From Thermovirgaceae bacterium (lineage in GTDB: Bacteria > Synergistota > Synergistia > Synergistales > Thermovirgaceae): a stretch of DNA of 64,000 bases. The notes below the pieces were generated by a model. It was not told where the DNA came from. It made no database searches and saw only the letters and a list, made by a program, of their open reading frames with translations. Numbering within the stretch: the first letter of the stretch is position 1; the number at the start of each line of letters is the position of its first letter. This document shows positions 3,639 through 60,404 of the stretch, one piece after another. Location of the stretch: the NCBI GenBank assembly GCA_040767805.1, contig JAXGNU010000005.1, positions 1 to 64,000 on the forward strand. The letters are read 5' to 3'. The position numbers and the translations under genes are program-made.

Positions 3639-3696
3639 GGACCCCCCTTGGGGGCCGTCGATCCCGACAGCCCGCATCCCTGACAATGACTGTTTT

Positions 3697-31410: not shown

Positions 31411-31434
31411 GGGGTCAGGTCTACACTTTTGACT
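31411..31434 (+). repeat. 24-bp RAYT-associated repeat (left arm)
   Basis: GGGGTCAGGTCTACACTTTTGACT; overlaps the transposase stop codon. Confidence 0.9.
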
Positions 31435-32365
31435 ATTTCAGCTTTTCCCCTATTTTCCGGACCCTTTCCTTCAACTCCCTGTTCCTTTCCATCCTGCTCT
31501 CAAGCCTCCGGCAGGCGCGGTTCACCCCCGATTCCGTCAACCCGTAAAGGTCCCCTATCTCTTTAAGCTTAGCACCACTGAACCTCCAGCAGAGGTAGAT
31601 GCCCGCCATCTTTGCCAGCTTGGCCTCCTCGGGGAAAACCTCTTCAGAAGCAGCCTTGATATCCCCCAAGGCGGGGCCGCCGACCAGTTCCCTCAGCGCC
31701 GGAAGGTCACGGCCCGGCTCAATTCCCTCCAGGTACTTCTCCCTGATGTCCCTGATGAACTCGTCGGTGCCGAGGATCGTCGAGGCGATCGAACCGGCAA
31801 GGGGGTCCACACCCTCTTCGCCGACGGCCTCCATCAAGTAGGCCCTGTAGTTTCCGGGGCGGTCCTTTTCGGACGGGCCGAAATACCCAAGGACGAGGCC
31901 CGTCGAAAGCCAGGAGGGGGCGGTGCCGTCGAGGTACCGAGGGCAGCTGCTCCACTGGTATTCCTCAAGGGAGGAAACCATCTTCGCCCTGACGGGGTTC
32001 AGGTGAATGTAGCGCGAAAGTTCAGCAGCGTAGGCGTCGGCCTCGACCAGGGTCGCCTTGTAGCGCCCCTGGAGTAGGTGGCCCGCTCTTTGATGCTTAA
32101 GGTTGAAATAGGTGGTATAGGACCCGTTGATATGCTTCATCACGCGCGAGAGATTCCCGTCGGGGGTTTCCACCATCAGGTGGTAGTGGTTGTTCATGAG
32201 GCAGTAAGCATGGAACACCGCCCCATACCTCTCCCAGGCCGACAACAGGTACGAAAGAAATTTTTCCCTGTCCCGCGCGGTCTTGAAGATATCCTTCTTT
32301 TCATTGCCCCGGGACATAACGTGGTACAAAGCGCCGGGGTATTCGATCCTCAAAGGTCTGGCCAA
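31433..32365 (-). mobile_element. HUH/Y1 REP-associated tyrosine transposase (RAYT-like) with C-terminal HTH extension
   Basis: YHVMSRG, YCLMNNHYHL (HUH), GHLLQGRYKA, YIHLNPVRA (Y1), YQWSS; C-terminal LKEIGDLYGLTESGV helix-turn-helix. Confidence 0.9.
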
Positions 32366-32559: not shown

Positions 32560-32806
32560 AGGTTTAATATGATAGGGTTGCACGAGACAGGGAGAAGAGA
32601 CCGGGCGAAATCACTGGGGAAAAAAACGAGATATCGCGCTGGTTGGGGCATCGGGACCCGGTTTTTCGGAGGACGGGGTTCACGGAAATCCTGGTCTCAA
32701 CTCGGAAATCCATGGCCTCAACCAGTGGTTGAGGGTTCCCATTTTCATTATTTTCGATGAGGTCTGTTCCAATGTTGAAGATACCAGGAAGTTACAATCT
32801 ACGATA

Positions 32807-33967
32807 ATGTTCAAGTTGGCTGTTCTTTCCCTTTCCCTACTTACTTTGATGTCCAACAGCGCCGTATCTCCGGCCCTAGGGGAGATTAGTGATTATTTCT
32901 GTTACAGCAAAGAGAGCCTTATTCGACTTGTACCTGTCATTCATGCGATTACGATTGTCCCCACAATTTTTTTTGTGGGACGCCTTTCAAGAGTTTTCCC
33001 CGGTAAGGCCTTGCTTGTTTTCGGACTTTCGGTTTTTACCCTGTCGGGGACGATAGGGGGTTTTGTCTCCAACATATTTACTCTACTGTTGACTAGGCTC
33101 TTCATGGGTTTTGGCCTTGGCCTGGTGATCCCCTTTTCTACGGCATTGATTTCGGATTTTTTCGAAGGTGATGAAAAGACCAGGCTGATGGGACTTTCCA
33201 GTTCTCTTAATATGTTTGGTGGGATGATTGCTCTGCTTGTTGCGGGACAGCTGGCTTCCTTTTCCTGGAGACTACCTTTTTTGATTTATTCTTTTGGTAT
33301 TCCTGTTCTGGGTTTGACCATCCGCTACCTACCCAACCTGGCAATAAGCGCCACCGAAGAAGCTACCGTTGGAACAAGCCCTGGAAGGTCCATCCTGCCG
33401 ATAGTACTGTCGATGTTTTTATTTAACCTGGTTTTCTTTATTCTCACTCCCACCATGGCCTTTTATCTTCGTTACAGCGGCCTTGGTGACAGCAGGATAA
33501 CGGGAATGGTCATTGCTTCCGCGAATATTGGAGGTTTCGCTGCGGGTATTTTGTTGCCTCAGACAAGAAAAACCTTGGGGAAATTTTTTATTCCAGTTGT
33601 CCTTTTCTCGATAGGAACAGGGTTTATCTTGCTATCGAAGGCGACCCTGATCGCCGTCGTTTTCCTGGGCACCATTGTTATAGGCTTCGCCAATAGGTCC
33701 ATCTACCCTCTTTTTTTCCTGAAAGTGACGGAAAACACCACGCCGGCGGAAGCAATCCGAAGAACTTCTCTATTAAGCACAATGGTGTACCTAGGGCAGT
33801 TCATGGCCCCTATCTTCCAGCAATTTGTCGGTATAGCTTTTCAAAGACCCGACATACGTTTCCTATACGGTTTTGTGGCCGTCCTTTCGATGGCCGCATC
33901 TTTCCCATTTTTTACCTATGCTTCGATCAAGAGGGGAAATGCTCTCCAGGCGATAAAAAAGGAATGA
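32807..33967 (+). CDS. MFS transporter
   Basis: About 12 hydrophobic helices, GRLSRVFPGK loop, RLFMGFGLG; visibly lower GC than the backbone. Confidence 0.85.
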   Translation: MFKLAVLSLSLLTLMSNSAVSPALGEISDYFCYSKESLIRLVPVIHAITIVPTIFFVGRLSRVFPGKALLVFGLSVFTLSGTIGGFVSNIFTLLLTRLFMGFGLGLVIPFSTALISDFFEGDEKTRLMGLSSSLNMFGGMIALLVAGQLASFSWRLPFLIYSFGIPVLGLTIRYLPNLAISATEEATVGTSPGRSILPIVLSMFLFNLVFFILTPTMAFYLRYSGLGDSRITGMVIASANIGGFAAGILLPQTRKTLGKFFIPVVLFSIGTGFILLSKATLIAVVFLGTIVIGFANRSIYPLFFLKVTENTTPAEAIRRTSLLSTMVYLGQFMAPIFQQFVGIAFQRPDIRFLYGFVAVLSMAASFPFFTYASIKRGNALQAIKKE

Positions 33968-34453
33968 CAATTTGACCGCTCACGCGCTCCCTGTACCGGG
34001 AAAAGCGAAAACAGCCCTGTTAAAAATGTGAATCAAACTCCACCCCAAGAGCGCTGCCTATAACATAGGGGAAAGGGACGAGCGACGGTCCTGCACCGGC
34101 CGCGCAAAGTCGCAAAAATCCCTTCCGGGCAAAATCATAGGTTCCCATCCATCCGCACACGATCATCGAGTATCGCCGTTTGTGCGATGCTGAAGATCTT
34201 CCTTCTCACCCCCATGATCTCTTTCGAAGAGCAGTTTTTTTGATACCTTTTTGAAAGGCCTGGAAAGACAAGGTTCGAGTCCACTTTGACGAAGTCAAGT
34301 TAATCGACCGAAGAGAGGTATTTCGAGAGGTTAGAATTAAGGAGACCGCCCAACAGCCTGCCGTCTAATAGTTTTAAGGCAAGTGATACAATTATCTTGA
34401 ACGGGATGAAGGGATGGCAAGAGATAGATTAAACCACGACGGGAGGTTCGATC

Positions 34454-35959
34454 ATGACCTTTTCACCCAGTATGAGTTCGGGCTTTACGGCGGCCAGGAA
34501 CAGGAGCAAGTATATTTCCCCCCAGTCGGGGATGTGCTCCCTGTGCACCGAAGAGTGCCCGGGGACTTGCGAGATAGCCCAGGCGGCCGTCCTGGGGAAG
34601 ATAACGGTTTATCCCACCACCACCGGCGCCAACCAGATCGCGTCGGAAAAGGATTACCCCATCGATTTTTCCCATTTCAATATAAACGGCCGTTGTTTCG
34701 GCGCCCTGGGGGTGGAGGCGGACCTCGAGCACGGGGAGATTTTCAACGTCAACCTGGCCTCGGAGTACGGCTATGATCACAGGGTGAAACTCGACCTGCC
34801 CATCGTCCTGCCCGCTATCATCAAGATGAACTGGGTCGACTACTTCGGCGGCGCCGCCATGGCCGGGGTGACCTGCATGATCGGCGAGGACGCCAGGGAA
34901 AAAGACGCCGAACTGGAAATGACGGACGGGAGGATCACGTCCTTTCCCATGCTGCAGAGAATACACGACAGCTTCCATAAATATTACCGTGGTTCGGGGC
35001 AGATGGTGCTCCAGTGCAATGTCGACGACCATCTCACGGGCGTTCCGGAGATAGCGCTTGAAAAATACGGCTTCGAGGCCCTAGAGTTCAAGTTCGGCCA
35101 GGGTGCCAAGGGGACCCAGCCGGTCAACAGGATCAAGGACTACGACGAGGCCGTGAAAAAGGTAGAGAAGGGGCACCTCGTCCACCCCGACCCCTTCGAT
35201 CCCAAGGTGATGGAACTCAGGGAAGAGGGCTGCTGCCCCAACTTCTACACCTACGGGAGGCTCCCGATGTGGACCGAGGAGACCATGGCAAAGCGGATCA
35301 CCGAGCTTAGGGAGAGGGGAACGAAGAACGTCTATTTCAAGATGGCCGGCTTCGACCTGGCCGATGTGGAGCGGGTCATCCGCATGGCGATAGAGAACAG
35401 GGTCGACATGGTCACCTTCGACGGGGCCGGCGGCGGTTCCGGCTACAGCCCCTCGAAGATGATGGACGAATGGTCCCTCCCGACGGTCATGCTTGAAAAG
35501 GGCGTCGTCGATATCTGCGACAAACTGGAAAGGCAGGGCAAAACGCTGCCTGCCATGGTCATCACCGGGGGCTTCATAAGCGAGGACCAGGTATTCAAGG
35601 CCCTCGCCTACGGCGACGGGTTCATCAACGCCGTCGGCGTCTGCCGCGGCGCGATGGCGGCGGCCATGACGGGCAAGACCATCGGCGACGAGATAAAGGC
35701 GGGCAGGACGCCGGAATTCTTCAAAAAGTTCGGCGATACCGTCGACGAGGTCTTCCGCGACCTGGCTGACCTTAAGGGGATCTACGGGAAAGAGGCCGAG
35801 AATTTCTCCACGGGGGCGATCGGGGTTTTCTCCTACCTGAACAAGCTGGCCTTCGGTTTGAGGCATTTCGCGGCCTTGAACCGGAAATTCGACCTTATGT
35901 ACCTGGACAGGAGCGACCTGATCCCGCTCACCTACTACGCCAACGACCTCTTGGGCTAG
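34454..35959 (+). CDS. FMN-binding glutamate-synthase-family protein (stand-alone FMN barrel)
   Basis: N-terminal CSLCTEECPGTC, EFKFGQGAKG, TFDGAGGGSG, GGFISEDQVFKALA. Confidence 0.85.
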   Translation: MTFSPSMSSGFTAARNRSKYISPQSGMCSLCTEECPGTCEIAQAAVLGKITVYPTTTGANQIASEKDYPIDFSHFNINGRCFGALGVEADLEHGEIFNVNLASEYGYDHRVKLDLPIVLPAIIKMNWVDYFGGAAMAGVTCMIGEDAREKDAELEMTDGRITSFPMLQRIHDSFHKYYRGSGQMVLQCNVDDHLTGVPEIALEKYGFEALEFKFGQGAKGTQPVNRIKDYDEAVKKVEKGHLVHPDPFDPKVMELREEGCCPNFYTYGRLPMWTEETMAKRITELRERGTKNVYFKMAGFDLADVERVIRMAIENRVDMVTFDGAGGGSGYSPSKMMDEWSLPTVMLEKGVVDICDKLERQGKTLPAMVITGGFISEDQVFKALAYGDGFINAVGVCRGAMAAAMTGKTIGDEIKAGRTPEFFKKFGDTVDEVFRDLADLKGIYGKEAENFSTGAIGVFSYLNKLAFGLRHFAALNRKFDLMYLDRSDLIPLTYYANDLLG

Positions 35960-36212
35960 GTGGGGCCGGCCCCGGCGCCGGGGATAAAACAGCGGCGACT
36001 CATAAACCCGATAAACGCCGGGGCCCCATTGTGCTATAATGACTTACGTCGAAGCAAGATTTTTGGGAGAGGGTTGAGGACTCTCCGGTTTTGGTGTAAT
36101 CATATTGGTAATGCCAAGGACTTATCAGAATGACTTTCAGGGGAAGGTCTTGTTGAAACCGGCTTCTGTCCTTGGCGCCGATCTCGATACTGGCCGGAAA
36201 AGGGGAACCCTG

Positions 36213-37022
36213 ATGTCGTCTGGAACCGCCGACGAGAAAGGAATGATCTATAAGATAGCCCGTTACGCCATCCATGATGGACCGGGGATCCGCACCACCG
36301 TTTTTTTGAAAGGCTGCCCCGCCCGCTGCCTCTGGTGCTGTAACCCCGAGTCGCAGCGCCGGGAACCGGAACTGGCGAAAAAGGTAGAGTTGTGCCGGAC
36401 CTGCCCCGCCGACGCGCTGGAATGGATAGGTCGGGAGATCACCGCCTCTGACTTACTCCGAGAAGTAGAACCTGACCGCCCTTTTTGGCGAAGGTCGGGA
36501 GGGGGCGTGACCCTTTCCGGTGGTGAACCTCTTTTCCAACCCCGGTTCGTGAAGCGATTCCTTCAACTTTGCCGGGAAAAACACATACACACCGCCTTGG
36601 AGAGCAGCCTTTTCGGCGACTGGAAGTTCCTGGAAGAATTGATGGATCTCGTCGATTTCTTCCAGTTTGACTTGAAGGCCATGGATCCCGAGGAGCACCT
36701 TCAATTGACCGGTCTCGACAACCGGGTCATTTTGGATAATGCCGCCAGGCTCCTCGAGAGCGATAAACAGCTCCTGGCGAGGATACCCCTCGTCCCCGGA
36801 TGCAACGATGGGGAGTCCAACCTTCGTGAACTGGGGGCCTTCCTGGAACGCCACCGCCCCGGGGCCCACCTGGAGGTCCTACCTTACCACCGCATGGGAG
36901 TCGGTAGATACGAAGAGTTGGGCAGGCCTTACCCCTTGCCTGACACTCTCCCGCCGACGGAGGAAGAGATGGAGAGGGCCTTGGGGATCCTGAAGGATTA
37001 TTCAATCCGGGTTATCAACTAG
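36213..37022 (+). CDS. Glycyl radical enzyme activase 1 (short form)
   Basis: HDGPGIRTTVFLKGCPARCLWCCNPES, GGVTLSGGEP, RIPLVPG, LPYH. Confidence 0.92.
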   Translation: MSSGTADEKGMIYKIARYAIHDGPGIRTTVFLKGCPARCLWCCNPESQRREPELAKKVELCRTCPADALEWIGREITASDLLREVEPDRPFWRRSGGGVTLSGGEPLFQPRFVKRFLQLCREKHIHTALESSLFGDWKFLEELMDLVDFFQFDLKAMDPEEHLQLTGLDNRVILDNAARLLESDKQLLARIPLVPGCNDGESNLRELGAFLERHRPGAHLEVLPYHRMGVGRYEELGRPYPLPDTLPPTEEEMERALGILKDYSIRVIN

Positions 37023-37035
37023 GGAGGTCGATAGC

Positions 37036-39426
37036 GTGCCCAAGACAACCACGAAAAGACGCGAACAGACCGTTGAACGGATCGCATCGATGAGAAAGAG
37101 GATGATCCTCGAACAGCCCACGGAACTGCTCCCGGAAAGGGCCCTCCTGGTCACCGAGGCCTACGAGGAGCACGCCGCTGAGCCGGCCTTGCTGCAGCGG
37201 GCCTACGCCCTGCAGAAGGTGCTCTCGGAAATGACCCTTTTCATGGATGATGAGGAACTTTTCGTCGGCCATCCTTCGCCGCAACCCCGGTCACCCATCG
37301 TCTGCCCGGAATTCGGCGCCCGCTGGATCCTGGAGGACCTGGATAACTTCGCCACCCGCAGCGCCGACGCCGTGGGGCTCACGGAAGAGAACAAGATCCT
37401 TTTGAGAGACTGCCTGACCAAGTGGGAACGGAGTTCCCTCGATGCCGTCGTCGACCGGCTTATCTCCCAGGAGGTCAAGGACGCCCTCGATGAGGGAATG
37501 ATCACTGTCGGCGGCCGAGGGACGGCCCAGGGCAACATCTCCATAAACTACAGCAAGCTGCTCGCCAGGGGCCTCCGAGGGATCATCGACGAGATCGACG
37601 AAAAACTGCGTACCGATGCGCCCAAGGGTATCGACGGGACGAAGAAACGGACCTTCTGGAAAGCCGCCCGGATCAGCTGCGAAGCCGTGATCGATTTCGC
37701 CCACCGCTACGCGGACCTGGCCGCCCGAAAGGCCGCCGGGACCAACGACACCCGGAGGAAGGAGGAACTCCTCCAGATAAGCGAAATCCTGAGGCGGGTC
37801 CCCGAGTTCCCGGCGACGACCTTCCGGGAGGCTGTCCAATCGGTATGGCTCGTCTACTCGGTGCTTCACATCGAGTCGGACCCCCACGCCATACTCCTGG
37901 GGCGCGTCGACCAGTACCTGTATCCTTTCTACCTGAAAGACAAGGCTGAAGGCCGCATCACCGATGAGGACGTGGTGGAGATCCTGGCCACGCTCTGGAT
38001 AAAGTGCACCGCCATCATCAAGCTCATGGATTCAGTCACCACTCGTACTTTCGCCGGTTTCCCGCTCTTCCAGAACGTGACCATCGGCGGCCAGGGGAGC
38101 CACGGGGAAGACGCCTCCAACGAGCTATCCAGGCTCATCCTCGACGCGGCCCTCGTCGCCCGCGTCACCCAGCCCTCCATCGGTTTCCGCTACCACAACA
38201 AGGTGGACCCGGACCTGCTGCAAAAAGTGGCAGAGACGATCCGGGAGGGACTGGGCTACCCCGCCATCATGAACGACGGGTGCATTATCCCCAAGCACCT
38301 GATCCGGGGGGCCACCCTGGAAGAGGCCCGCAACTACTGCACCAACTGCGTCGAGACCGATATCGAGGGGATGACCGATTCCCGCGCCCATTCGGGCTAT
38401 GTCAACTTCCCCAAGTGCTTCCTGCTGGCGATGAACGACGGCGTCGACCCCGAGTCCGGCCGCCGGGTCGGGCCTGCGACGGGGAAGCTCGAGTCCTTCA
38501 CCTCCTTCGACGAACTTTTCTCGGCCTACAAGGCCCAGGTGGCCCATTTCACTAAGCTCATCGTCGATGCCTACGACCTGGTCGACGGGGCCCACGCTGT
38601 CCACACTCCCGAGCCTTTCATGTCGAGCCTCCTCGATGACTGCATCGAACGGGGAATGAGCCGCCAGGAAGGCGGGGTTCGATACAACTTTTCGGGGATC
38701 TTCGGCGTAGGCCTCGCCTCCGTGGCCGATTCCATGGCGGCGGTGCGCCGGCTGTGCTTCGATGAACGATCGGTGCCCCCTTCGAAAATGCTCGAAGCTC
38801 TGAAAAACAACTTCCAGGGCGAGGAAACCCTCCTCGACGCCTGCGAGAAGGCGCCCAAGTTCGGCAACGATGACGACTACGTCGACCTCATCGCCCGCGA
38901 CGCTGCCCATGTCTTCTGCAGCGAGGTGACCCAGTACCCCTGCATGAGGGGCGGTTTCTACATCCCCGAGCTTCACTCCGTCTCGACCCACGTCTACTTC
39001 GGCGAGGTCACCGGGGCCACTCCCGACGGCCGCCTCAGGGGCATCGCCTTCTCCGACGGCGCCTCCCCCGTGGGTGGCAGGGACCGCAAGGGCCCCACGG
39101 CGGCGGTGCGGTCGATGACCAAGATCGACCACCAGGAAGTCCTCCAGGGGGTCCTTTACAACCAGAAGTTCTCCAGGAGCCTCCTGAGAAAGCCTGGCGA
39201 AGTGGGGGCCTTCACCGATTACATCCGCTCCTACTGCGACCTTGGAGGCCACCACATCCAGTTCAACATGATATCCACCGAGGAATTGCGGAAAGCCCAG
39301 GAGAACCCCTCGGCCTTCCGCGACCTGATAGTACGGGTGGCAGGGTACAGCGCCTATTTCACCGAGCTCAACCGCAACACCCAGGATGAGATCATCGCCC
39401 GTACGGAGTACGAGGAGCTCTCCTAA
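37036..39426 (+). CDS. Glycyl radical enzyme 1 (eliminase-like, substrate unknown)
   Basis: GRVDQYLYPFY, YCTNCVE thiyl loop, ATPDGR, HIQFN, LIVRVAGYS. Confidence 0.92.
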   Translation: MPKTTTKRREQTVERIASMRKRMILEQPTELLPERALLVTEAYEEHAAEPALLQRAYALQKVLSEMTLFMDDEELFVGHPSPQPRSPIVCPEFGARWILEDLDNFATRSADAVGLTEENKILLRDCLTKWERSSLDAVVDRLISQEVKDALDEGMITVGGRGTAQGNISINYSKLLARGLRGIIDEIDEKLRTDAPKGIDGTKKRTFWKAARISCEAVIDFAHRYADLAARKAAGTNDTRRKEELLQISEILRRVPEFPATTFREAVQSVWLVYSVLHIESDPHAILLGRVDQYLYPFYLKDKAEGRITDEDVVEILATLWIKCTAIIKLMDSVTTRTFAGFPLFQNVTIGGQGSHGEDASNELSRLILDAALVARVTQPSIGFRYHNKVDPDLLQKVAETIREGLGYPAIMNDGCIIPKHLIRGATLEEARNYCTNCVETDIEGMTDSRAHSGYVNFPKCFLLAMNDGVDPESGRRVGPATGKLESFTSFDELFSAYKAQVAHFTKLIVDAYDLVDGAHAVHTPEPFMSSLLDDCIERGMSRQEGGVRYNFSGIFGVGLASVADSMAAVRRLCFDERSVPPSKMLEALKNNFQGEETLLDACEKAPKFGNDDDYVDLIARDAAHVFCSEVTQYPCMRGGFYIPELHSVSTHVYFGEVTGATPDGRLRGIAFSDGASPVGGRDRKGPTAAVRSMTKIDHQEVLQGVLYNQKFSRSLLRKPGEVGAFTDYIRSYCDLGGHHIQFNMISTEELRKAQENPSAFRDLIVRVAGYSAYFTELNRNTQDEIIARTEYEELS

Positions 39427-39456
39427 TTTCAAGAAAGGGATCTGGAGGTGTCGATA

Positions 39457-41856
39457 ATGGCTAACAGTTTCAATGCACCCTATGCGGACCGGATAAACAG
39501 GTTAAAGGAGAAGGTGCTGACCACCTACCCCGAGATCGACCTTGAGAACGCGAGGATCCTCACGCAAAGCTTCCGTGAAACCGAGGGGGAGGTCTTTGTC
39601 CTGAGGAAGGCCAAGGCCTTCCGGCGCCAGTGCCAGGAGAAGACCGTGGAGATCTGGGACGATGAACTGATCGTAGGCAACGCCGGCAGCAAGATCCGCG
39701 GCGGTATCCTCTCCGCCGACGTCTGCTGGTCCGTACTCGACAAGGAGTTGGACACGATCAACACCCGTCCCTACGACAAATTCCACCTCCGGCCGGAGGA
39801 CCGGAAGATCTTCGAGGAGGAGATCCGCCCCTATTGGAAAGGACGCTCCAATTACGAGGCGTGGCTGGCCCAGATACCCGAGGACGTGGCCGCCCTAAGG
39901 GACAATGGCGCCCTTTACATCGACAAGAAGGCCGTCCGCGGTTGGGGCGAAGTGACGGCCGGTTACGAGTGGTTCATAAAGAACGGAGTCAACGGGATCG
40001 TCAAGCTCGTGGAGGCCCAGAAGGCGGGCCTGGACGCGACGCGCCCCGGCGACTACGAAAAGGAGGCCTACCTCGACTCGCTTTTAGTAGTGGCCGAAGG
40101 GATGCTGACCCTGGCGGAACGCTATGCCCTCGAGGCCGACCGCCTGGCCTCGGCCGAGAAAGACCCGGCCCGCCAGAGAGAGCTCCGGAAGATCGCCGAG
40201 ATCTGCAGGCACGTCCCGGCCCAGCCGGCCCGCACCTTCCACGAGGCGTTGCAGTCCTTCTACTTCTACCAGATCTTCCTGTTCATGGAGCAGAACGCCG
40301 CCGCCTATAACCCCGGCAGGATGGACCAGTACATGTACCCCTACTACAAGGCCGATCACGACGCGGGTCGCATCACTCCCGAGGAAGCCCAGGAACTGCT
40401 GGATTGCCTTTGGGTCAAGTTCTCCGAACAGTGCCTGTTCCAGGACGGCAAATCGGCCGAGTACTCTTCGGGGTACCCCATGTTCCAGAACCTTTGCGCC
40501 GGCGGTGTGGACCACCAGGGCAGGGACGCCGTCAACGACCTCTCCTACATGATCCTCCAGGCGACGATGGATACCCAGCTCTACCAGCCCTCGCTCTCGG
40601 TGCGGTATAACATGGCCAAGAACCCCGACACCTTTCTTCGCAAGATCGTCGATCTCATTAGCCTGGGGACGGGTTTCCCCGCCTTCCACAACGACGAGGT
40701 CGGCATCAGGATGCTCATGAACAAGGGGGTCCCCCTTCGGGAGGCCCTCGACTGGAACCCCGGGGGATGCGTCGAGACGAACCTGGCCGGTAAGCTCCGG
40801 GCCTATTCAGCCTTGGCTGATATCAACCTCGGGAGCGTGGTGGAGTACGTGCTCCTCGGCGGGAAATGCCGCAAGACGGGCGCCCAGGTGAGCATCGACA
40901 CGGGCGACCCCAGGTCCTTCGCCACCTGGGAGGAATTCGAGGAGGCCCTCAAGGCTCAGCTCCATTACGTCATCCGGGTCGTCGTCAAGGCCAGCCATAT
41001 CATCGACGAGATCTGCATGGACCGCCCCGTGCCGGCCCTGTCCTTCAGCTTCGAGGAATGCATCACCAGCGCCAAGGATTACGCCTGGGGCGGAGCCAAG
41101 TACAACACGGGCAACGGCATCATTTGCATCGGCGTCGCCGACCTGATCAACAGCGCCGCCGCCGTGCGCCACCTCGTATACGAGACGAAGGCCCTCACCA
41201 TGGGCGAGCTCCTCGAGGCCCTGGACCGCGATTTCGAAGGCCGCGAGGAGACCCTCCGGCTCTGCCGGGAGGCGCCGAAGTACGGCAACGACGACCCCCG
41301 CGTCGACGACCTGGCGGCGGATCTTTTCTCCTACATCGCCGACGAGATCGAAAACTACCGCAGCAAGTTCGGCGTCATGACCCCCGGCATCCTCCCCGTC
41401 TCAGGGAATACCCCCTTCGGGAAGGAAGTGGGCGCCCTGCCTTCGGGACGGCGGGCGTGGAAACCCCTCGCCGACGGGGTCAGCCCGAACGGGGGAACGG
41501 ACCTGAACGGCCCCAGCGCCGTCCTCAAGTCCGTCGCCAACATTCCCCACGACCGGTTTGTCCAGGGGACGTTGCTGAACATGAAGATCGATCCTGAAAT
41601 GCTCCACACCGAGAACGGGATCATCCGGTTCATGGCCCTGCTGAAGAGCCTTTACTCCCTGGGGATCTATCACGCCCAGTTCAACGTCGTCGACCAGTCC
41701 AAACTGATCGACGCCCAGAAAAACCCCGATAACTACAAGGGACTCCTTGTCCGCGTCGCCGGTTACACGGCCTTCTTCGTCGAACTTGGCAAGGACGTCC
41801 AGGACGAGATCATAGCCAGGACGGTTCACGGAGAAAAACCCTCCAGGACCTGCTGA
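39457..41856 (+). CDS. Glycyl radical enzyme 2 (eliminase-like, substrate unknown)
   Basis: GRMDQYMYPYY, WNPGGCVE thiyl loop, ALPSGR, HAQFNVV, LLVRVAGYT. Confidence 0.92.
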   Translation: MANSFNAPYADRINRLKEKVLTTYPEIDLENARILTQSFRETEGEVFVLRKAKAFRRQCQEKTVEIWDDELIVGNAGSKIRGGILSADVCWSVLDKELDTINTRPYDKFHLRPEDRKIFEEEIRPYWKGRSNYEAWLAQIPEDVAALRDNGALYIDKKAVRGWGEVTAGYEWFIKNGVNGIVKLVEAQKAGLDATRPGDYEKEAYLDSLLVVAEGMLTLAERYALEADRLASAEKDPARQRELRKIAEICRHVPAQPARTFHEALQSFYFYQIFLFMEQNAAAYNPGRMDQYMYPYYKADHDAGRITPEEAQELLDCLWVKFSEQCLFQDGKSAEYSSGYPMFQNLCAGGVDHQGRDAVNDLSYMILQATMDTQLYQPSLSVRYNMAKNPDTFLRKIVDLISLGTGFPAFHNDEVGIRMLMNKGVPLREALDWNPGGCVETNLAGKLRAYSALADINLGSVVEYVLLGGKCRKTGAQVSIDTGDPRSFATWEEFEEALKAQLHYVIRVVVKASHIIDEICMDRPVPALSFSFEECITSAKDYAWGGAKYNTGNGIICIGVADLINSAAAVRHLVYETKALTMGELLEALDRDFEGREETLRLCREAPKYGNDDPRVDDLAADLFSYIADEIENYRSKFGVMTPGILPVSGNTPFGKEVGALPSGRRAWKPLADGVSPNGGTDLNGPSAVLKSVANIPHDRFVQGTLLNMKIDPEMLHTENGIIRFMALLKSLYSLGIYHAQFNVVDQSKLIDAQKNPDNYKGLLVRVAGYTAFFVELGKDVQDEIIARTVHGEKPSRTC

Positions 41857-41939
41857 CCTTGCAATCCCGGGGCGGCGGAGCTCCCGCTTCGCCGCCCCGG
41901 TCACTTCCGATCCAAGGATCGAATCAGGGGAGTCATGCC

Positions 41940-42908
41940 ATGAATAACCTTACAAAAGGGACCGACGGAGAACGGGTCGGCAGAGTGCTGCGGATCGAGA
42001 GGTCCTCCATCCATGATGGGACGGGGCTGAGAACGGTCGTTTTTTTAAAGGGCTGCCCCCTGCGCTGTCTCTGGTGTTCCACTCCTGAGTCTCAAAACCC
42101 TCTGCCCGAGAAAGGTTACGCCAAGGAACGCTGCACGTTGTGCGGCCTCTGCATTGAAAACTGTCCCCAGGGGGCCCTGAGCCTCGATGAGGCGGGAGAG
42201 AGGATCGTCACCGACCGGGATAAGTGCGTCAATTGTTTCGAGTGCGTCAGGGTCTGTCCCTCCGGTGCGATGAAAAGCTACGGTGGCTTCATGACCGTCA
42301 ACGAGGTTGTGGAGGAGGTCGTAAAGGACGCCGTCTTCTACTTCCATTCCGGCGGAGGCGTCACCATCAGCGGCGGGGAACCCTTGGACCAGCCTGATTT
42401 CGTCCAGGCCCTCCTGCGGGAATGCCAAAAGCATGGTATCCACCGCGCCCTGGAAACGAGCTTTTTCGCCCCCTGGGAGACGATCGAGCCCCTGCTCCCC
42501 TTGGTGAACCTGCTTTTCGTGGATATGAAGCACTCCATGCCCGAAGAACACCGGCGCCTTACCGGTGTCGACAACAACCTGATCGCTGAAAACATCCTCA
42601 AGGCCGATGCCTCGGAGTATCCCTTTGACCTCGTCATCCGCACCCCCCTGGTCCCGGGGCTAAACGATTCGGATGAGGCCCTCGCAAAAGCGGCGCATTT
42701 TCTCAAAGGCTTGAGAAAGCTGAAAGAGGTCGAATTTTTAGCCTATCACCGTCTTGGCACCGATACCTACGCTCACCTGGGGATTCCTTATCCCCTGAGC
42801 GAGATAAAAAGTCCGAACAAGGATTTCATGCTATCCAAGGCAAGGTTTTTCATGTCAGAGGCCAAGGGAATCCCCGTCGCGATCAACGGAGTCCCCGTAA
42901 ACCCCTAA
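41940..42908 (+). CDS. Glycyl radical enzyme activase 2 (with 2x[4Fe-4S] ferredoxin insert)
   Basis: HDGTGLRTVVFLKGCPLRCLWC, CTLCGLCIENCP, CVNCFECVRVCP, GGVTISGGEP. Confidence 0.92.
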   Translation: MNNLTKGTDGERVGRVLRIERSSIHDGTGLRTVVFLKGCPLRCLWCSTPESQNPLPEKGYAKERCTLCGLCIENCPQGALSLDEAGERIVTDRDKCVNCFECVRVCPSGAMKSYGGFMTVNEVVEEVVKDAVFYFHSGGGVTISGGEPLDQPDFVQALLRECQKHGIHRALETSFFAPWETIEPLLPLVNLLFVDMKHSMPEEHRRLTGVDNNLIAENILKADASEYPFDLVIRTPLVPGLNDSDEALAKAAHFLKGLRKLKEVEFLAYHRLGTDTYAHLGIPYPLSEIKSPNKDFMLSKARFFMSEAKGIPVAINGVPVNP

Positions 42909-42948
42909 CAATTTGAACACATACCTTAGCTTTTGGGGAGGACCCGCC

Positions 42949-43890
42949 ATGGAGAGAAAAGATTTTGCCCTGGCCTTCTTGGTCGTGACCATATGGGGCG
43001 GCAACTTGATCGTGATCAAATTGGGTCTCAACGACGTACCGCCCATGCTTCTCGCCGCCCTGCGCTACATCTTCACGGCTCTGCCGGCCATAGCTTTCAT
43101 AAAACCGCCCCGGCTGGAGTGGCGTTATACAATCGCCTACGGCATGACCATCGGTTTCGGGCAGTTCTCCTGCCTCTTCTACGCCATGTACATCGGCATG
43201 CCCGCGGGGCTCTCCTCGATCCTTCTCCAGACCCAGGCCTTTTTCACTATCTTCTTCGCCGCTTTCCTCTTCGGGGAAAAACTCGAGGCCCGACAGATGA
43301 TAGGCCTCGCGACGGCCCTAATGGGCCTTTTCCTGATCGGCGGCATCAAGAGTCCCGCCGGCATACCTCCCGTCTCTTTCACGGCCTTCGCCCTGACCAT
43401 GGCCGCCGCGGCTTTTTGGGGACTATCCAATATAGTCGTACGGTTGGCCGCCAAGCATACGGCATCCCGCGGGGAAAAACTGAACACCCTGAGCCTCGTG
43501 GCATGGTCCAGCCTTGTACCGCCCCTGCCACTCCTCGGCCTGGCCGTGCTGATGGACACCCCCCGGGAGCTGATCGGCGCGGTGACGCATATGAACCGCG
43601 TCTCCCTCTTCGCCATCCTTTACCTGGCCTACCTGGGGACCATTTTCGGGTCTTCCCGGTGGAGCGGCCTGCTGGCGAAGTATCCCGTGGGGAAGGTTGC
43701 CCCCTTTTCCCTGCTCACGCCGCTGACCAGCCTCGTCATGGCCAGGCTCATCCTCGGGGAGGAACTATCCCTGCACCAGTACCTCGGCAGCATGGTGGTC
43801 CTCCTCGGTTTGTGCATCGTTAACTTCAACGGACGCTTCAAAAAAGATGATCTAGGTCAGCCTGATCAAGGGAAACCGCCTTCGACTTAA
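42949..43890 (+). CDS. EamA/DMT-family transporter
   Basis: WGGNLIVIKLG, PPMLLAALR, GMPAGLSS, VAPFSLL; about 10 TM helices. Confidence 0.9.
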   Translation: MERKDFALAFLVVTIWGGNLIVIKLGLNDVPPMLLAALRYIFTALPAIAFIKPPRLEWRYTIAYGMTIGFGQFSCLFYAMYIGMPAGLSSILLQTQAFFTIFFAAFLFGEKLEARQMIGLATALMGLFLIGGIKSPAGIPPVSFTAFALTMAAAAFWGLSNIVVRLAAKHTASRGEKLNTLSLVAWSSLVPPLPLLGLAVLMDTPRELIGAVTHMNRVSLFAILYLAYLGTIFGSSRWSGLLAKYPVGKVAPFSLLTPLTSLVMARLILGEELSLHQYLGSMVVLLGLCIVNFNGRFKKDDLGQPDQGKPPST

Positions 43891-44032
43891 GCAAACCCCG
43901 GGCAAGACTTACGCAGCTTCACTCAGGAAACACACAAACAAGCGCTCCCTAATCGGATCAACCGCGGAGTCTAACAGGAAAAGATCGCCCGGGGACCGAG
44001 GTCCCCGGGCGAAGTTTTACCGGGATCGCCCC

Positions 44033-44699
44033 CTAGCGCAGTCCCAGGACGTTGCTCGGTAGCCACAGGGTGAGCTGGGGGAAGAAGATGACCAACAGGA
44101 CCACGGCGGCCTGGATCAGGATGAAGGGCCAAACCGATCGGTAAAGATCCATCGTCGTGATCTCCGGCGGGGCCACCCCCTTCAGGTAAAAGAGGCAGTA
44201 ACCGAAGGGGGGCGACAGGTAGCCGATCTGCATGTTGATCATGAAAAGGACGCCGAACCAGACGGGATCGAACCCGTAGCTGGCCAGGATCGGCGCGTAG
44301 ATGGGCAGGGTCAGGCACATCATCGTTATCTCTTCCGTGACGCACCCCATGATGATGTAGGTCATCTGCATGATCATGACCATGACCAGGGGAGTGACGT
44401 TGAGGTTCAGGAAAAACTGGCGGATCAGGTCGGCCGCCCCCACGGTGACGAACATGGTGGCGAAGAGCTTGGCGCCGACTATGATCCACATGACCATGTT
44501 GCAGATCCGGAAGGTCCTGTCGCAGGACTCCCACAACAGGGCAAAGGTCAGCTTTCTCTTGGCGGCCACGCAGAGAAGGGCCACGCCGGCGCCGATGGCG
44601 GCTGCCGCCGAGGGTGAAGGCCATGGGGAAGCCGAGAAAGAGTCCGCCGAAAAGAAGCCCCAGAAGCATGATGAGGTAAGTGGACGCAGTCAGCTCCAT
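44033..44699 (-). pseudogene. TRAP large permease (DctM) with large out-of-frame internal deletion
   Basis: N-terminus (..LGFPMAFTLGG) joined out of frame near 44605 to the C-terminal half (AAAIGA...DPVWFGVL...LSPPFG...LWLP). Confidence 0.85.
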
Positions 44700-44701
44700 G
44701 A

Positions 44702-45200
44702 TCACACCTTCTTCTCGAAAAGGCCGTAGAGAGTTTCGACGAACTGGGCGATCCCCTGGAGGATCATCAGCATCGAAGCGGCAGGGATGAAGAGCTTCAC
44801 GGGGTAAACGGGCGGACGGAGGAAGGAGACCGTTGTCTCACTGTACAGGACCGACATGTAGGCCATCTTGCAGCCGTGATAGAAGATCACGCCCATCAAC
44901 AGGAAGAAAAAGGGGTAGGTGATCAGATCAACGACGGCCATGGCCCGTTCGGAGAAAAGGGCGTAAAGGACGTCCGATTTGATGTGTTCCCGATGCAGCA
45001 GTACGTACCCACCGCCTATGATGGCATAGGCGCCGAAAATGTGGCCCGAAATCTCGTGGGCCCAGATCGTGGGCGCGTTAAACACGTACCTTGAAACAAC
45101 CTCGTAGCACAAGATGCCTATCAAGGGCAAGATCAGAAAGCATAAGGTCTTACCAAAAAAAGGTGTTCAGTTTCCCGATAAACCGGATGAAGTACCTCAT
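44702..45200 (-). pseudogene. TRAP small permease (DctQ), +1 frameshift in a homopolymer
   Basis: Removing one base from the A7 run at 45155-45161 joins MRYFIRFIGKLNTFF to GKTLCFLILPLIGILCYEVVSRYVFNAPTIWAHE. Confidence 0.8.
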
Positions 45201-45809
45201 CGACAACCCCCCCATGCTATCGCAAAGCGATAGGCACCCTTGAGGCGAATGTAAAAGGTATCCAAAATCCGCGCTCTGGAACAACCTAAAAAAACACGCA
45301 ATACCGAAAGTATAGGACCCGAAGCCCGCCCTGGTTTCCAGACCCTGAAAAGCAAGAGCAGGGCATTTGTTCAAAAGGATTGAGGCTATGAAGAAACCTG
45401 GCAGTGGTCCGGCCTTTGAGATACTCCTCCGGCGCCGCCTGGAAACCGTCGAAGCATAAAAAGGCGTCACTATCGTCCTGTTGAAGATCGTGATACCGCT
45501 CTTGGTTCATCCGAATGCACCGCACCCGGTGATTACCCCAAGCTGGCGGGGAACAGAGTAAACCTGCAAGGTCCCCCAGGGCGTTTGGCTCCTTCCCCGG
45601 TAAGAGGGGAACCTTGCAGGCCTATTACGGTTGAAAAAAACCTTCCGCCCGTGCCTGAGCCGATCATGATAGGCACCGGCGGGATCCCTAACGAGAATCG
45701 CCGGGGATCACGTAACAGTCACTTCAAGGAGGGACTTCGGCTTCCTTATCGGCTGAACCCGATCAGGCCTCCGTTACCTCGGCCGGGCCGATCCGGCCCG
45801 GCGACCAGG

Positions 45810-47027: not shown

Positions 47028-47765
47028 TCAGTCCATCAACATTCCGCCGTTTATGTTTAGGACCTCTCCCGTAATATAAACGGCCTTCTCGGAAAGGAGG
47101 AAAGAGACGGCATCGGCTATTTCTTCGGGTTTGGCCAAACGCCCGATGGGGATCTTCTTGATCGCTTCTTTCCAGCGGTCGCTTTTAAGGATATTGGGCG
47201 TCTCCACCCATCCCGGCGCGACGGCGTTCACATTGATATGGAATTCCGCCATTTCCGCCGCCAGGGACCGGGTCAAACTGATCACCCCGGCCTTGGCCGC
47301 CGAGTAGGCGGCGTTCCCTGGTCCGGGCGTCTTCCCGTCGATGGAAGCCATGTTGACAATCTTCCCCGACCGGTGGGCCATCATATCGACGAGGCACTCC
47401 TGGCTGCACCATAAGAAAGATTTCAGGCATACGTTCATGACCAAGTCCCAATCCTGGTCTTTTATTTCCATGAAGGGTCCGCTGGGGTAAATACCCACGT
47501 TGTTGATAAGGGCGTTGATGGGTCCAAAGGTGGATCGTGCTTTAAGGATGGCGCCTCGGGCAGCATCCCGGGTCGAAAGATCACAGGCGATACCTTGGGC
47601 AGTCCCCCCATTCAGGGCAACTTCATTCGCCACAGCTAGGGCATGCTCTACGGAAAAGCTGACAATGCTGACGGTCCACCCTTCACTTGCCAGCGTCCTA
47701 GCTATAGCCCTGCCTATACCGCTTCCTCCCCCGGTGACAACAGCGTGGCCTTTTTTCGGTGTCAA
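47028..47765 (-). CDS. Classical SDR oxidoreductase (FabG-like)
   Basis: TGGGSGIG, NNVG, YSAAK, NAVAPG. Confidence 0.9.
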   Translation of the reverse strand: MTPKKGHAVVTGGGSGIGRAIARTLASEGWTVSIVSFSVEHALAVANEVALNGGTAQGIACDLSTRDAARGAILKARSTFGPINALINNVGIYPSGPFMEIKDQDWDLVMNVCLKSFLWCSQECLVDMMAHRSGKIVNMASIDGKTPGPGNAAYSAAKAGVISLTRSLAAEMAEFHINVNAVAPGWVETPNILKSDRWKEAIKKIPIGRLAKPEEIADAVSFLLSEKAVYITGEVLNINGGMLMD

Positions 47766-52016: not shown

Positions 52017-52733
52017 GTGAGCAAGCGAGGAGCCTTGGTCAATCAGATACTCGAAGGAATTAAAAACGGTTCCCTGGTCGAGAACGGCCAATTGCCCTCA
52101 GAAAGGGCCCTGGCGAATAAATATGGCATCAGCCGTATCCTCCTTCGAGAGGCAATCGTGGTCCTGGAGACTCTTGGTGTTGTCGAAAGCAGGGAGAGGC
52201 TTGGTATTTTCGTCAAGAAGCCCGATATAAACGGACTGGCGGAATCCCTTCGGATAATGCCTTACTGGTCTGAGAGTTTTGTTCTCCAGTTGATCGAAAT
52301 ACGCCTCATGACTGATGTACGGGCCGCGGAGCTGGCGGCGTTAAGGAGAAACGGGAAGCAGCTGGAAGCACTTCGGCAGTGCCTTGCCACCTTTCTTGAA
52401 ATAGGTGTGGATACTCTCCAAGAAGCGAAGCTTTCTTCTCATTATGAATTTATTTTCCACAGGCTTATTGTGGAAGCCGCGAACAACGATATATTGATCA
52501 GGATCTATGAAGGCCTAAGCTCCCTGATGGAGAAAAACAATGATTTCCTTCACGAAAAACTGACCCGGGACGCAACATGGGGAAAACGTGTGAAGGAGCA
52601 TCATAAGAATATTTTTCAGGCAATTCAGGATGGAGACTCGGAAAAAGCGAAGCAATGGATGCGTACTCACCTTTTCGAGACGCGGGATAGATACTGCAAG
52701 ATCTTGGAGGAATTGAAAGGACTTTTTATATAA
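52017..52733 (+). CDS. FadR/GntR-family regulator (FCD domain)
   Basis: LPSERALA..YGISR..LREA, EIR, FHRLI..AANN, EHH..I..AI. Confidence 0.9.
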   Translation: MSKRGALVNQILEGIKNGSLVENGQLPSERALANKYGISRILLREAIVVLETLGVVESRERLGIFVKKPDINGLAESLRIMPYWSESFVLQLIEIRLMTDVRAAELAALRRNGKQLEALRQCLATFLEIGVDTLQEAKLSSHYEFIFHRLIVEAANNDILIRIYEGLSSLMEKNNDFLHEKLTRDATWGKRVKEHHKNIFQAIQDGDSEKAKQWMRTHLFETRDRYCKILEELKGLFI

Positions 52734-56534: not shown

Positions 56535-57521
56535 TTAGATTTTAATCTCGCGCCCAATTCCAGCTCTTATAGCATTGTTATAAATGTTCCATGCAGCAAC
56601 CACGTCCAGCACTGCATATCCCACCGTTTTCATCACCGTGATCTGGTTCGGATTCTGACGACCATCGATCTTACCGTCTAGAACCTCTCCAAGCTCACCG
56701 GCGATACAATCAAAACTGTACTTGCCCTCGTTGATTGGTATAATAAAATCTCCAGCTTCGGCAAATACAGATTCTTTGTTGTCAACAAATACGCGCGCCC
56801 TCCGGATTAACGATAAATCAAGTTCTCTTTTGTTTGGTGTGTATGAACCTACTCCGTTTACATGGGCCCCATATTTTATCCTTTTACCATCAAAAACTGG
56901 AGTTTCGGATGTCGTTACGGTTGTTATTACATCTGCTTCATCTGTCGCTTCTTCTGGCGAAGACGTAGCTACCAGTTTTACTCCGAATCGCTCCGCCGTA
57001 TCCATTTCTCGGGTGACGAAACTTTTTATCCTTTCTTTCGATACATCATATATTCTTACTTCTTCGATATTTCTTACCATAAGCATTGCTTCAAGCTGTC
57101 TATGCGCTTGCCCTCCAGTACCAAAAAGAGCCGCAACTTTGCTGTTATTTCTTGCAAGAATGTCAGTAGCCGCACCGGATATTGCTCCTGTCCTTATCCT
57201 TGTAACCTCTGTACCATCGATCATCGCACAAACTTCACCTGTCTCATGATCCAGCAATAATACCTGAGCAGTAACAACGGGAGTATTCTTATTTATGTTG
57301 TCCAGAAAAGTGGACACAATTTTTATTCCTATACGGTTTACATAACTCTTCACGTATGCCGGCATAAACTGTGACATGCTAGCCTCATTTACTCTAAAGC
57401 TAATGCGCACCGGAACCTCTGTCTGCCTCTGCGAATGGAGTAAAAACGCCGTTTTATTCGATTGGATTGCATCCCGCATTGTAAAAATTTTGTTAATATC
57501 CTGTGCGTCCAATAAAAGCAT
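56535..57521 (-). CDS. Ornithine cyclodeaminase / mu-crystallin family protein
   Basis: [36 protein letters not shown]. Confidence 0.9.
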
Positions 57522-57556: not shown

Positions 57557-58294
57557 TTAGAGGTGCCCTTCATATTGCTTCGGGGTAACTGCGTTATATA
57601 CGTGTTTAATCATCGTTATAAAATCATAGATTGGAAGGCCTGTGTGATCGTGGAGCAGTTTCGCATACGGAGGTAGGTCGCTGCATTCAAGAAGAATCGC
57701 ACCGATGGTCCCTTCTCTCTCTATCATCTCATCAACAACCTCAATGATCTCTTTCTGCATTAGCTCATTGTCAAGTGTGCCCCTACAATGAAGAATGGCT
57801 TCAAGGAATTCAGGCTTATTCTCCATGCCGTAAACGACAACAGGCATATCTTCAGTGACACCAACACTGCGGAAATGACTAGTGGTGAGCTTTGATTTAT
57901 TAGCTGTAATGACCCCCAATTTCTGTCTTGAACTTAAGGTCTGTACTATAAAAGGTATCTGTAACAAACTTGAAAGGAACACGGGAACATCAACGGCATC
58001 CGCAACTTCCTTTTGGAAAAGGGCCATAAAACCACATGCTCCTGTTATTGCGCGTACGCCTTCTCTTTCCAGCTGCTTTGCACCTTCGACAAAAGCGGAC
58101 ACCAAACTTTTGTCAGCCTGATAAACCATCCTTTGCGTATCCGCTCCCTTAACTTCATGGTACCTTACTGGAAATGGATAGGTATTAGCATTTGCAACAT
58201 TTCCTGGAATATAAGGATACGCACAATCCAGCACCAGTATACCAACAGCCTCACCACTCCACGATTTACTTCTCTTATCAAGTGTGTAAATCAT
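57557..58294 (-). CDS. Asp/Glu/hydantoin racemase-superfamily protein
   Basis: PGNVANA.TYPFPV, ITGACGF, SSLLQ, LLECSDLPPY (two-Cys arrangement). Confidence 0.8.
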   Translation of the reverse strand: MIYTLDKRSKSWSGEAVGILVLDCAYPYIPGNVANANTYPFPVRYHEVKGADTQRMVYQADKSLVSAFVEGAKQLEREGVRAITGACGFMALFQKEVADAVDVPVFLSSLLQIPFIVQTLSSRQKLGVITANKSKLTTSHFRSVGVTEDMPVVVYGMENKPEFLEAILHCRGTLDNELMQKEIIEVVDEMIEREGTIGAILLECSDLPPYAKLLHDHTGLPIYDFITMIKHVYNAVTPKQYEGHL

Positions 58295-59736: not shown

Positions 59737-59756
59737 TTAATCATCCCCACAATACA

Positions 59757-60269: not shown

Positions 60270-60404
60270 TACTTCTCTCCTTCCTACTTCTTTCTTGCGC
60301 GAATCTCTTGTAAGAATAAGCGAAGCAACATAACATGCTTGAAAACAATGCCATGCCATGTTGCCTCGCTCATGTTTAAAATTGGGGAATAAACCTCTTC
60401 CCTG

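Follow-up and report, generated by a model that had tools for sequence, protein, structure and literature searches.

The first 64,000 nucleotides of contig JAXGNU010000005.1 (assembly GCA_040767805.1) of a Thermovirgaceae bacterium of the phylum Synergistota, referred to below as the window, encode a glycyl radical enzyme (GRE), here called GRE1, whose catalytic cysteine lies on a loop that is one residue short and carries asparagine where almost all relatives have glycine. The comparisons described below support the view that this Gly-less, shortened loop marks a distinct and conserved clade, for which no characterised member was found. It is fairly probable, judging from sequence and gene neighbourhood, that GRE1 is functional and belongs to a monophyletic and uncharacterised branch of the PFL2/glycerol-dehydratase-type enzymes, acting most likely on a hydroxyproline-derived compound. 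The gene and its key motifs are located as follows.

37036..39426, forward strand: GRE1, a 796-residue glycyl radical enzyme of the short-Cys-loop clade (Pfam, NCBIfam and AlphaFold2 (AF2) model)
38335..38355, forward strand: Cys loop Y434-C435-T436-N437-C438-V439-E440, with the catalytic Cys438 and the CxE glutamate, Glu440
39334..39402, forward strand: glycyl radical motif RVAGYSAYFTELNRNTQDEIIAR, residues 767-789 with Gly770, from the translation

The Cys loop of GRE1

The frame at 37036-39426 (+) runs without a stop over 796 residues and contains EEARNYCTNCVETDIEG, residues 430-442 being EARNYCTNCVETD. Codons 435-440 (C-T-N-C-V-E) occupy 38338-38355 and are directly preceded by the Tyr434 codon at 38335-38337. 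An earlier note made from the letters of this DNA had read ARNYCTNCVET at 38338..38355 and had held that the frame is intact, so that the loop is not a frameshift artefact; the translation agrees with both. It had also given ALDWNPGGCVET for GRE2, a second GRE encoded downstream that is 33% identical to GRE1, and the translation indeed gives ALDWNPGGCVETN, with GGCVE at 40762-40776.

GRE1 contains the PFL-like and glycyl-radical Pfam domains (PF02901, E 1.7e-198, and PF01228, E 1.4e-30) and passes the NCBIfam subfamily model TIGR01774 with 726 bits against a cut-off of 678, as GRE2 also does. Its motif RVAGYSAYFTELNRNTQDEIIAR satisfies the fingerprint RVxG[FWY]x6-8[FL]x4Qx2[IV]x2R given for GREs in the parts cited here of a 2026 review of the superfamily (PMC13450708). 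The CxE motif, by which the cited passages of the same review recognise GRE 1,2-eliminases and isomerases, is present as C438-V-E440. In the 16 short-loop sequences of our alignment A2, Cys438 and Glu440 are invariant and Asn437 is found in 15. GRE1 shows the complete GRE fold and the glycyl radical motif, together with the catalytic Cys438, Glu440 of the CxE motif and an adjacent activase.

In the HMMER alignment with glycerol dehydratase (PDB 1r8w) the segment 'arny.ctncvet' is placed opposite 'ardygiigcvep', which leaves a one-residue gap between Tyr434 and Cys438. The same gap is present in the HMMER alignment with 9rco, MAFFT concurs, and the flanking blocks align well. In a canonical PFL2/eliminase loop, Gly stands at position -1 of the catalytic cysteine, and the stretch between the aromatic residue and this cysteine counts five residues; GRE1 has Asn and four residues. 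Both peculiarities had been pointed out in the earlier note and are reproduced by the two alignment methods.

Rarity and descent of the short loop

A loop census was made with GRE1 and its best 150 matches in an exhaustive HMMER search of a library holding one representative per 50%-identity cluster. The fragment P0232, which does not cover the loop, was left out, giving 150 rows (the query and 149 representatives; P-numbers denote homologous proteins, G-numbers surveyed genomes and L-numbers loci). Gly occupies the -1 position in 136 of the 150 rows (91%), and it is at this level that the claim that GREs 'almost always' have Gly before the catalytic cysteine holds. Another residue combined with the usual spacing occurs in 11 rows (Ala and Ser three times each, and Ile, Phe, Val, Tyr and Thr once each). 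The short spacing with Asn is confined to three: GRE1 itself (P0001), its 70% representative P0044, and P0116. Since the spacing is longer in the other 147 rows, the deletion is within this sample limited to the GRE1 lineage. Unusual rows of the census are P0190, P0195, P0198, P0208, P0218, P0226, P0252, P0253, P0258, P0266, P0267 and P0270: 11 have a non-Gly residue at normal length, and in P0190 the catalytic cysteine itself is replaced by Asn.

A word-index search found YC[T/M/A/N]NCVE[T/S]D in every match listed at 56-100% identity, which amounts to about 100 clusters at 90% identity, and the source names of these matches include Synergistales, Cloacibacillus and Desulfobacula. Because the motif is unchanged in all listed homologues of at least 56% identity, it can be ascribed neither to chance nor to a sequencing error. 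Further away, P0102 (51%) reads YHIICVETD and P0104-P0112 (43-48%) read YVTNCIEPE. The deletion is common to all of these, and the next relatives, from P0113 onward, have the canonical length and Gly. The copies in genome G034 (43% identity) proved to be canonical. In a FastTree phylogeny of 40 sequences, calculated with the loop columns included and with Shimodaira–Hasegawa-like local support, the 16 short-loop rows form one clade with a support of 99, and its sister is a canonical W[A/S]I[E/T]GCVE group. The simplest reading is that the residue was lost once, at the base of the clade. The distinct GRE subclass postulated in the earlier note thus takes the form of a conserved, monophyletic short-loop clade: homologues keep the motif, the closest ones lack an xxGCVE loop, and no solved or curated GRE carries it.

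Loop geometry

An AF2 model of GRE1 (22-row alignment, mean pLDDT 90.4, pTM 0.92) superimposes on 1r8w with a TM-score of 0.95 at 41% identity. DSSP assigns strands to residues 434-436 and 441-443 of the model and a turn to N437-C438-V439-E440, with the catalytic cysteine at the tip. In an AF2 model of the canonical P0122 (NYCIIGCVEPQ) the strands cover positions -4 to -2 and +2 to +4 around the cysteine, and two linker residues follow the preceding helix where the GRE1 model has one. Judging by the two models, the hairpin seems to take up the deletion at its base, in the linker from helix to strand, rather than at its tip. Of the unusual active-site geometry that the earlier note had proposed, the part concerning the tip would then depend mainly on the exchange of Gly for Asn. 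Asn is a common substitute for Gly in turns.

A contact between Asn437 and the substrate is plausible by analogy, because PFL Cys418, which attacks the substrate, occupies the same -1 position according to the cited parts of PMC13450708.

The CxxC arrangement, to which attention had also been drawn, is present in GRE1 as C435-x-x-C438, but its role as a functional pair is not supported. Cys435 is invariant only in the branch of at least 56% identity; the YVTNCIEPE sequences have Val there, and P0102 has His. A cysteine at the equivalent position is moreover common in canonical enzymes, where the spacing is CxxxC, as in the CutC-like DYCLMGCVE and the propanediol-dehydratase-like NYCIIGCVE. The CxxC was therefore rejected as a defining feature of the clade, and since its first cysteine varies and is common in canonical enzymes, we do not regard it as a functional novelty.

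A remodelled pocket

The loop is not the only position at which the clade departs from its relatives. Signature positions, defined as conserved in at least 15 of the 16 short-loop sequences and present in fewer than 10% of 144 full-length outgroup representatives, number 22 and include N167, N437, D448, S449, R543, E645 and H647. At position 437 Gly is found in 133 of the 144 outgroup representatives. The second position of particular interest is the following.

37534..37536, forward strand: codon of Asn167, which aligns with the general acid of glycerol dehydratase, His164 (HMMER alignment)

All 16 short-loop sequences have Asn at position 167, where His is present in 98 of the 144 outgroups and Asp in the CutC-like representatives. 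The Asp of CutC at this position contacts the amine leaving group. Four further residues of glycerol dehydratase, Ser282, Tyr339, Asp447 and Tyr640, which we take to have roles in its pocket, align with Ala285, Phe345, His452 and His647 of GRE1. His164 is described in the cited parts of PMC13450708 as the acid that protonates the leaving hydroxyl, so that GRE1, having Asn167, lacks the general acid expected of a B12-independent glycerol dehydratase. In view of these pocket differences GRE1 is not a diol dehydratase in disguise. Being more polar and charged and devoid of the acid His, the pocket suggests that the substrate is zwitterionic and that its leaving group does not have to be protonated by His. 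For recognition of the clade the marks are N-C-[V/I]-E together with the one-residue deletion, Asn in place of the acid His, and TDSR(A/P)HSGYVNF after the loop.

Relation to known glycyl radical enzymes

GRE1 fails the NCBIfam equivalog cut-offs of HypD (NF043068, 580 of 1100 bits), CutC (TIGR04394, 560 of 1050), the YbiW-type enzymes (578 of 1109), and HpfG and HpsG (NF048009 and NF048011, 534 and 535 bits with a cut-off of 1000). The score against the PFL/TdcE model TIGR01255 is 145 bits where 994 are needed, and with N437-C438 the loop lacks two adjacent cysteines; two cysteines on the loop occur in PFL and TdcE only, according to the cited parts of PMC13450708. The eliminases and isomerases characterised so far are all listed in that review, in the parts cited here; its sections 5.6, 5.7 and 7 and its passages on the Cys loop contain no enzyme with an Asn-Cys loop. 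Literature searches returned no paper on the short-loop clade, the gene-cluster figures of the original HpyG/HpzG paper (Jiang et al., ACS Catal 2024) being outside their scope, and the source names of homologues are generic.

The closest solved structures are the glycerol dehydratase of C. butyricum (1r8w/1r9d; E 1.7e-195, 41% identity and a TM-score of 0.95 for 1r8w) and the 1,2-propanediol dehydratases (5i2g, 9rco). They share with GRE1 the fold, the Gly motif, the catalytic cysteine and the CxE glutamate, but have a loop that is one residue longer and contains Gly, other pocket residues and another genomic context. The trans-4-hydroxy-L-proline dehydratase HypD (6vxc) and the N-methyl-cis-4-hydroxyproline dehydratases HpyG and HpzG (8id1/8iof) belong to the same superfamily, have the CxE motif, and represent the families to which the neighbours of GRE1-type genes belong; they are only 31-33% identical to GRE1, and their own loops have the canonical length with Gly before the cysteine. 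CutC (choline trimethylamine-lyase) is a CxE eliminase that, like GRE1, has a non-acid residue (Asp) at the His164 position, but it is 34% identical and has the canonical DYCLMGCVE loop. PFL-type enzymes (Cys418-Cys419) are, in the parts of the review cited, the only described GREs other than ribonucleotide reductases without Gly at -1, and their -1 residue acts directly on the substrate. They differ from GRE1 in having Cys where it has Asn, GRE1 has the CxE glutamate, and the relationship is distant (E 3.3e-37). By analogy, a GRE that opens the hydroxyproline ring without protonating the leaving water could be one model for the chemistry of GRE1, as far as the source cited goes; this enzyme is 33% identical to GRE1, and no OrtAB-type thiolase genes were seen near GRE1 or in the annotated loci.

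Genomic context

GRE1 is part of a cassette of two GREs and two radical S-adenosylmethionine (SAM) activating enzymes, and further genes that recur near short-loop genes are found elsewhere in the window.

36105..37022, forward strand: AE1, radical-SAM activating enzyme upstream of GRE1 (TIGR02494, 284 bits against 174); the coordinates are those of the longest open reading frame and the true start is probably further in
39448..41856, forward strand: GRE2, an HpyG-like GRE (best PDB match 8id1)
41859..42908, forward strand: AE2, activating enzyme with a two-cluster ferredoxin insert (TIGR02494, 322 bits; Fer4 domains)
42913..43890, forward strand: EamA-family transporter (Pfam PF00892)
47028..47765, reverse strand: FabG-like short-chain dehydrogenase (SDR; Pfam adh_short)
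52017..52733, forward strand: GntR/FCD regulator (Pfam)
56535..57521, reverse strand: ornithine cyclodeaminase/mu-crystallin-family gene (OCD; Pfam PF02423)
57557..58294, reverse strand: racemase-like gene of 245 residues (homology to proteins of loci L126 and L120)

GRE2 has the PFL-like and glycyl-radical Pfam domains, like GRE1, and matches 8id1 from end to end (E 0, 1177 bits), with the loop WNPCGCVETNLAGK opposite WNPGGCVETNLAGK. HpyG itself reads WNPCGCVE, so the loop of GRE2 is normal for its family.

Orthologues of GRE1 (at least 61% identity) were found in six of 61 related genomes and HpyG-like genes (at least 71%) in nine. The latter occur without GRE1 in G014 and G022, and G055 has fragments of both. 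Over the whole phylum an orthologue is present in 24 of 268 genomes and in 15 of 76 genera. An HpyG-like gene directly adjoins it on the same strand in 23 of these 24 genomes, and in the remaining one, G227, the contig ends. The core cassette is AE1-GRE1-GRE2-AE2, often followed by the EamA transporter: AE1 orthologues lie upstream of GRE1 in L100, L103, L104 and L002, and EamA orthologues follow AE2 in L101, L104, L106-L109, L112 and L114. The high-GC loci L102 and L105 were left out of the gene-map comparison.

Metagenomes were scanned with an alignment of the 71-residue loop segment, which proved specific and gave 26 loci, of which 8 were too short to judge. An earlier profile search of genome contigs with the full-length alignment had given one short-loop locus out of 79, the others being almost all canonical, and served as the xxGC background. 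The nine metagenome loci of group A (61-100% identity to GRE1) all repeat the cassette. In group B (55-62%) and group C (45-46%, YVTNCIEPE) a second GRE adjoins the short-loop gene in all six and all three loci, respectively, that have enough flank, usually with one activase between the two GREs. For the eight group B and C partners tested, the best NCBIfam family was HypD in every case (788-1070 bits), and the four searched against the PDB (L116, L120, L126 and L129) all matched HypD 6vxc best. Their loops read NGCVE in four, NGCVN in two and NGCVT in two.

Other genes recur near the short-loop genes. An SDR directly follows the short-loop gene in L117, L119 and L120, SDR homologues are near GRE1 orthologues in L100, L101, L104, L106-L112 and L114, and GntR/FCD genes adjoin the cassette in L101, L110-L112, L114, L118, L125, L126 and L129. 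The surroundings of the GRE pair in L120, L126 and L129 encode AcnX with its swivel domain, enolase-superfamily, DHDPS-family and B12-binding proteins, DAO and Pyr_redox_2 oxidoreductases, OCD/mu-crystallin and a racemase-like protein of about 250 residues. The OCD gene of the window shares 41% identity with the one that follows the GRE pair in L120, and its 245-residue racemase-like protein is 52% (L126) and 44% (L120) identical to proteins beside short-loop GREs. It is possible that these two genes are distant members of the same pathway. Searches of the PDB and NCBIfam with the SDR gave generic FabG-like matches only, and no PDB match was found for the racemase-like protein.

Two features of the cassette proteins may be recorded here. 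An insert of about 40 residues, ferredoxin-like and with two auxiliary 4Fe-4S clusters, is missing from AE1 in the window, G004 and G047, and is retained in the AE1 orthologues of G031 (L104) and L002, as well as in AE2. This looks like the lineage-specific loss of an auxiliary-cluster domain in an eliminase-type activase. Furthermore, four of the HypD-like partners (L119:2147-4531, L120:12024-14390, L129:6459-8807 and L130:6506-8854; 972-1070 bits) have C-V-N or C-V-T. The CxE glutamate is kept in all characterised eliminases in the cited parts of PMC13450708, and by their sequences these partners may be a second unusual GRE group.

Possible catalytic roles

We read GRE1 as an eliminase or isomerase, as yet uncharacterised, whose substrate derives from hydroxyproline. 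In this mechanism AE1 would install the radical on Gly770, from where it would move to Cys438. The Cys438 thiyl would abstract a hydrogen from a hydroxylated substrate of which the hydroxyl group is held by Glu440, and 1,2-elimination or isomerisation would follow. The pocket would have been rebuilt together with the loop, with Asn167 in place of the acid His and with the new invariant residues Asp448, Ser449, Arg543, Glu645 and His647, and Asn437, at the place of PFL Cys418, probably lines the substrate site. A zwitterionic amino acid as substrate would fit such a pocket. Because GRE1 is always paired with an HpyG- or HypD-like GRE and often accompanied by an SDR, a GntR regulator and, at some loci, hydroxyproline-pathway genes, a hydroxyproline-derived substrate is most likely. 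It could be another isomer or N-methylation state of the partner's substrate, or its precursor or product. The pairing fits three roles, in which GRE1 extends the pathway of the partner to a further proline derivative, acts before the partner, perhaps through a keto intermediate reduced by the SDR, or acts after it.

A more specific proposal, which we put forward tentatively, is that the short-loop clade catalyses an undescribed GRE reaction in the anaerobic breakdown of hydroxyproline or N-methyl-hydroxyproline (betaine). Candidate reactions are the ring-opening C-N cleavage of an N-methylated 4-hydroxyproline, the dehydration of a 3-hydroxy- or dihydroxyproline that feeds the neighbouring HypD/HpyG-type enzyme through the SDR, and attack on an isomer taken by no known GRE. 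In each of these reactions the role of Asn437 and Asn167, in place of Gly and the acid His, would be to bind a leaving group that carries nitrogen.

Several points weigh against the main reading of GRE1 or limit it. The solved structures closest to GRE1 belong to diol dehydratases and not to hydroxyproline enzymes. GRE2 is assigned solely by its similarity to 8id1. The group B and C partners tested all remain below the curated HypD cut-off of 1100, and some of them lack the CxE glutamate, which makes it uncertain what these partners act on. Although frequent, the SDR does not occur everywhere: it was not found in L002, L103, L113, L115, L116, L126, L129 and L130. Hydroxyproline-type neighbours are present in three of the five annotated group B and C loci (L120, L126 and L129, not L116 and L113), and several of these neighbour families presumably serve the aerobic pathways of 3- and 4-hydroxyproline and of hydroxyproline betaine. 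The metagenome loci were selected by the loop motif itself and hence carry no weight for its conservation.

Other explanations of the loop and of the gene pair have to be weighed against this reading. Apart from the rarity of the motif (three of 150 representatives), nothing speaks for an ordinary xxGCVE enzyme whose loop was altered by a lesion in this strain or by a mistake in sequencing or assembly; this is scarcely conceivable and was rejected. Among the matches listed the same loop recurs in about 100 clusters of homologues of several origins, in the phylum it is found in 24 genomes, the metagenome contigs L107 and L108 are 100% identical over the loop segment, and the frame of GRE1 is open. 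Cys435 and Cys438 could instead form a functional pair, as a second thiyl like that of PFL, a disulfide switch or a metal site. The invariance of CxxC in the branch of at least 56% identity would agree with this, as would the precedent of PFL, whose second loop cysteine is catalytic according to the cited parts of PMC13450708. The idea is nevertheless improbable: sequences with Val or His at the first position have the deletion too, and otherwise the same pocket, cysteine at this position is common in canonical CxxxC enzymes, and Cys435, at -3, is part of the ascending strand of the model and does not adjoin Cys438.

Similarity to the diol dehydratases raises the question of whether GRE1 is simply a paralogue of glycerol or 1,2-propanediol dehydratase with a neutral loop difference, as the ranking of 1r8w, 9rco and 5i2g as best solved relatives would allow. 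We consider this very improbable. His164 is replaced by Asn167 and four further pocket residues of glycerol dehydratase are changed, no microcompartment or aldehyde-handling genes were found near GRE1, and the conserved neighbours are GREs of the hydroxyproline type. It is also unlikely, if somewhat less far-fetched, that GRE1, instead of being an enzyme in its own right, serves the neighbouring HpyG/HypD-type GRE as a partner subunit, for example in a heterodimer, or as a spare radical carrier. In its favour, no GRE1-type gene was found that lacked a partner GRE, while G014 and G022 have HpyG-like genes but no GRE1, and in groups B and C the two GREs often share one activase. On the other hand, GRE1 keeps the Cys, the Glu, the Gly motif and a specific, conserved polar pocket, a pattern to be expected if selection maintains it as a catalyst with a substrate of its own. 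It also has its own activase in group A, and the sections of PMC13450708 covered here contain no heteromeric catalytic GRE pair.

Other genes in the window

Just upstream of AE1, at 32729-35959 (+), are genes for an MFS transporter and a 501-residue protein with a glutamate-synthase domain of the flavin mononucleotide (FMN) type. They were found in G004, of the same genus, and on the metagenome contigs L106-L108 (GRE1 98-100% identical), where L107 and L108 gave a match to the FMN-domain protein alone. The glutamate-synthase-like fold of this protein recalls subunits of N-methylglutamate synthase and, we assume, would fit the breakdown of an N-methyl amino acid.

Transposition genes flank the cassette region: an IS200-like Y1 transposase at 31433-32365 (-), an rve integrase fragment at 48480-49064 (+) and a Mutator-family transposase at 50542-51780 (-). 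A mobile accessory module would be in keeping with these genes and with the patchy occurrence of GRE1 orthologues, in 24 of 268 genomes.

A set of TRAP transporter genes at 43971-46661 (-) looks shortened in comparison with G004 of the same genus, with 142 versus 167 residues for DctQ and 283 versus 366 for DctP, and no DctM domain was found in a 244-residue open reading frame of the set. Metagenome contig L107 has the same short forms. Decay of this transporter is possible; a second, intact-looking TRAP set is located at 58432-61415. Beside the OCD, racemase-like and TRAP genes lies a gene of the dihydroxy-acid/6-phosphogluconate dehydratase family at 54745-56328 (-), which may belong to the same catabolic set. 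At the start of the window, at 593-3686 (-), an aldehyde:ferredoxin oxidoreductase gene adjoins a radical-SAM/SPASM maturase-like gene.

Implications

GRE functions are sorted largely by residues of the Cys loop and the pocket, and whole clades are still without a function, as set out in section 7 of PMC13450708 in the parts cited. The short-loop clade is real, conserved and uncharacterised, and what is new here is its gene context, a short-loop GRE beside a GRE of the hydroxyproline type. The clade is easily recognised and is conserved in Synergistota and, going by source names, in other lineages. Its pairing with a hydroxyproline-type GRE gives enzymologists a short list of substrates, and the clade is a natural test of the purpose of the near-universal Gly before the catalytic cysteine. 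If the substrate is a hydroxyproline derivative, GRE1 would add a step to the anaerobic degradation of collagen and proline betaine in digesters and guts. Should the clade indeed catalyse an undescribed reaction, two-GRE modules would be a general funnel of collagen- and plant-derived proline derivatives into proline.

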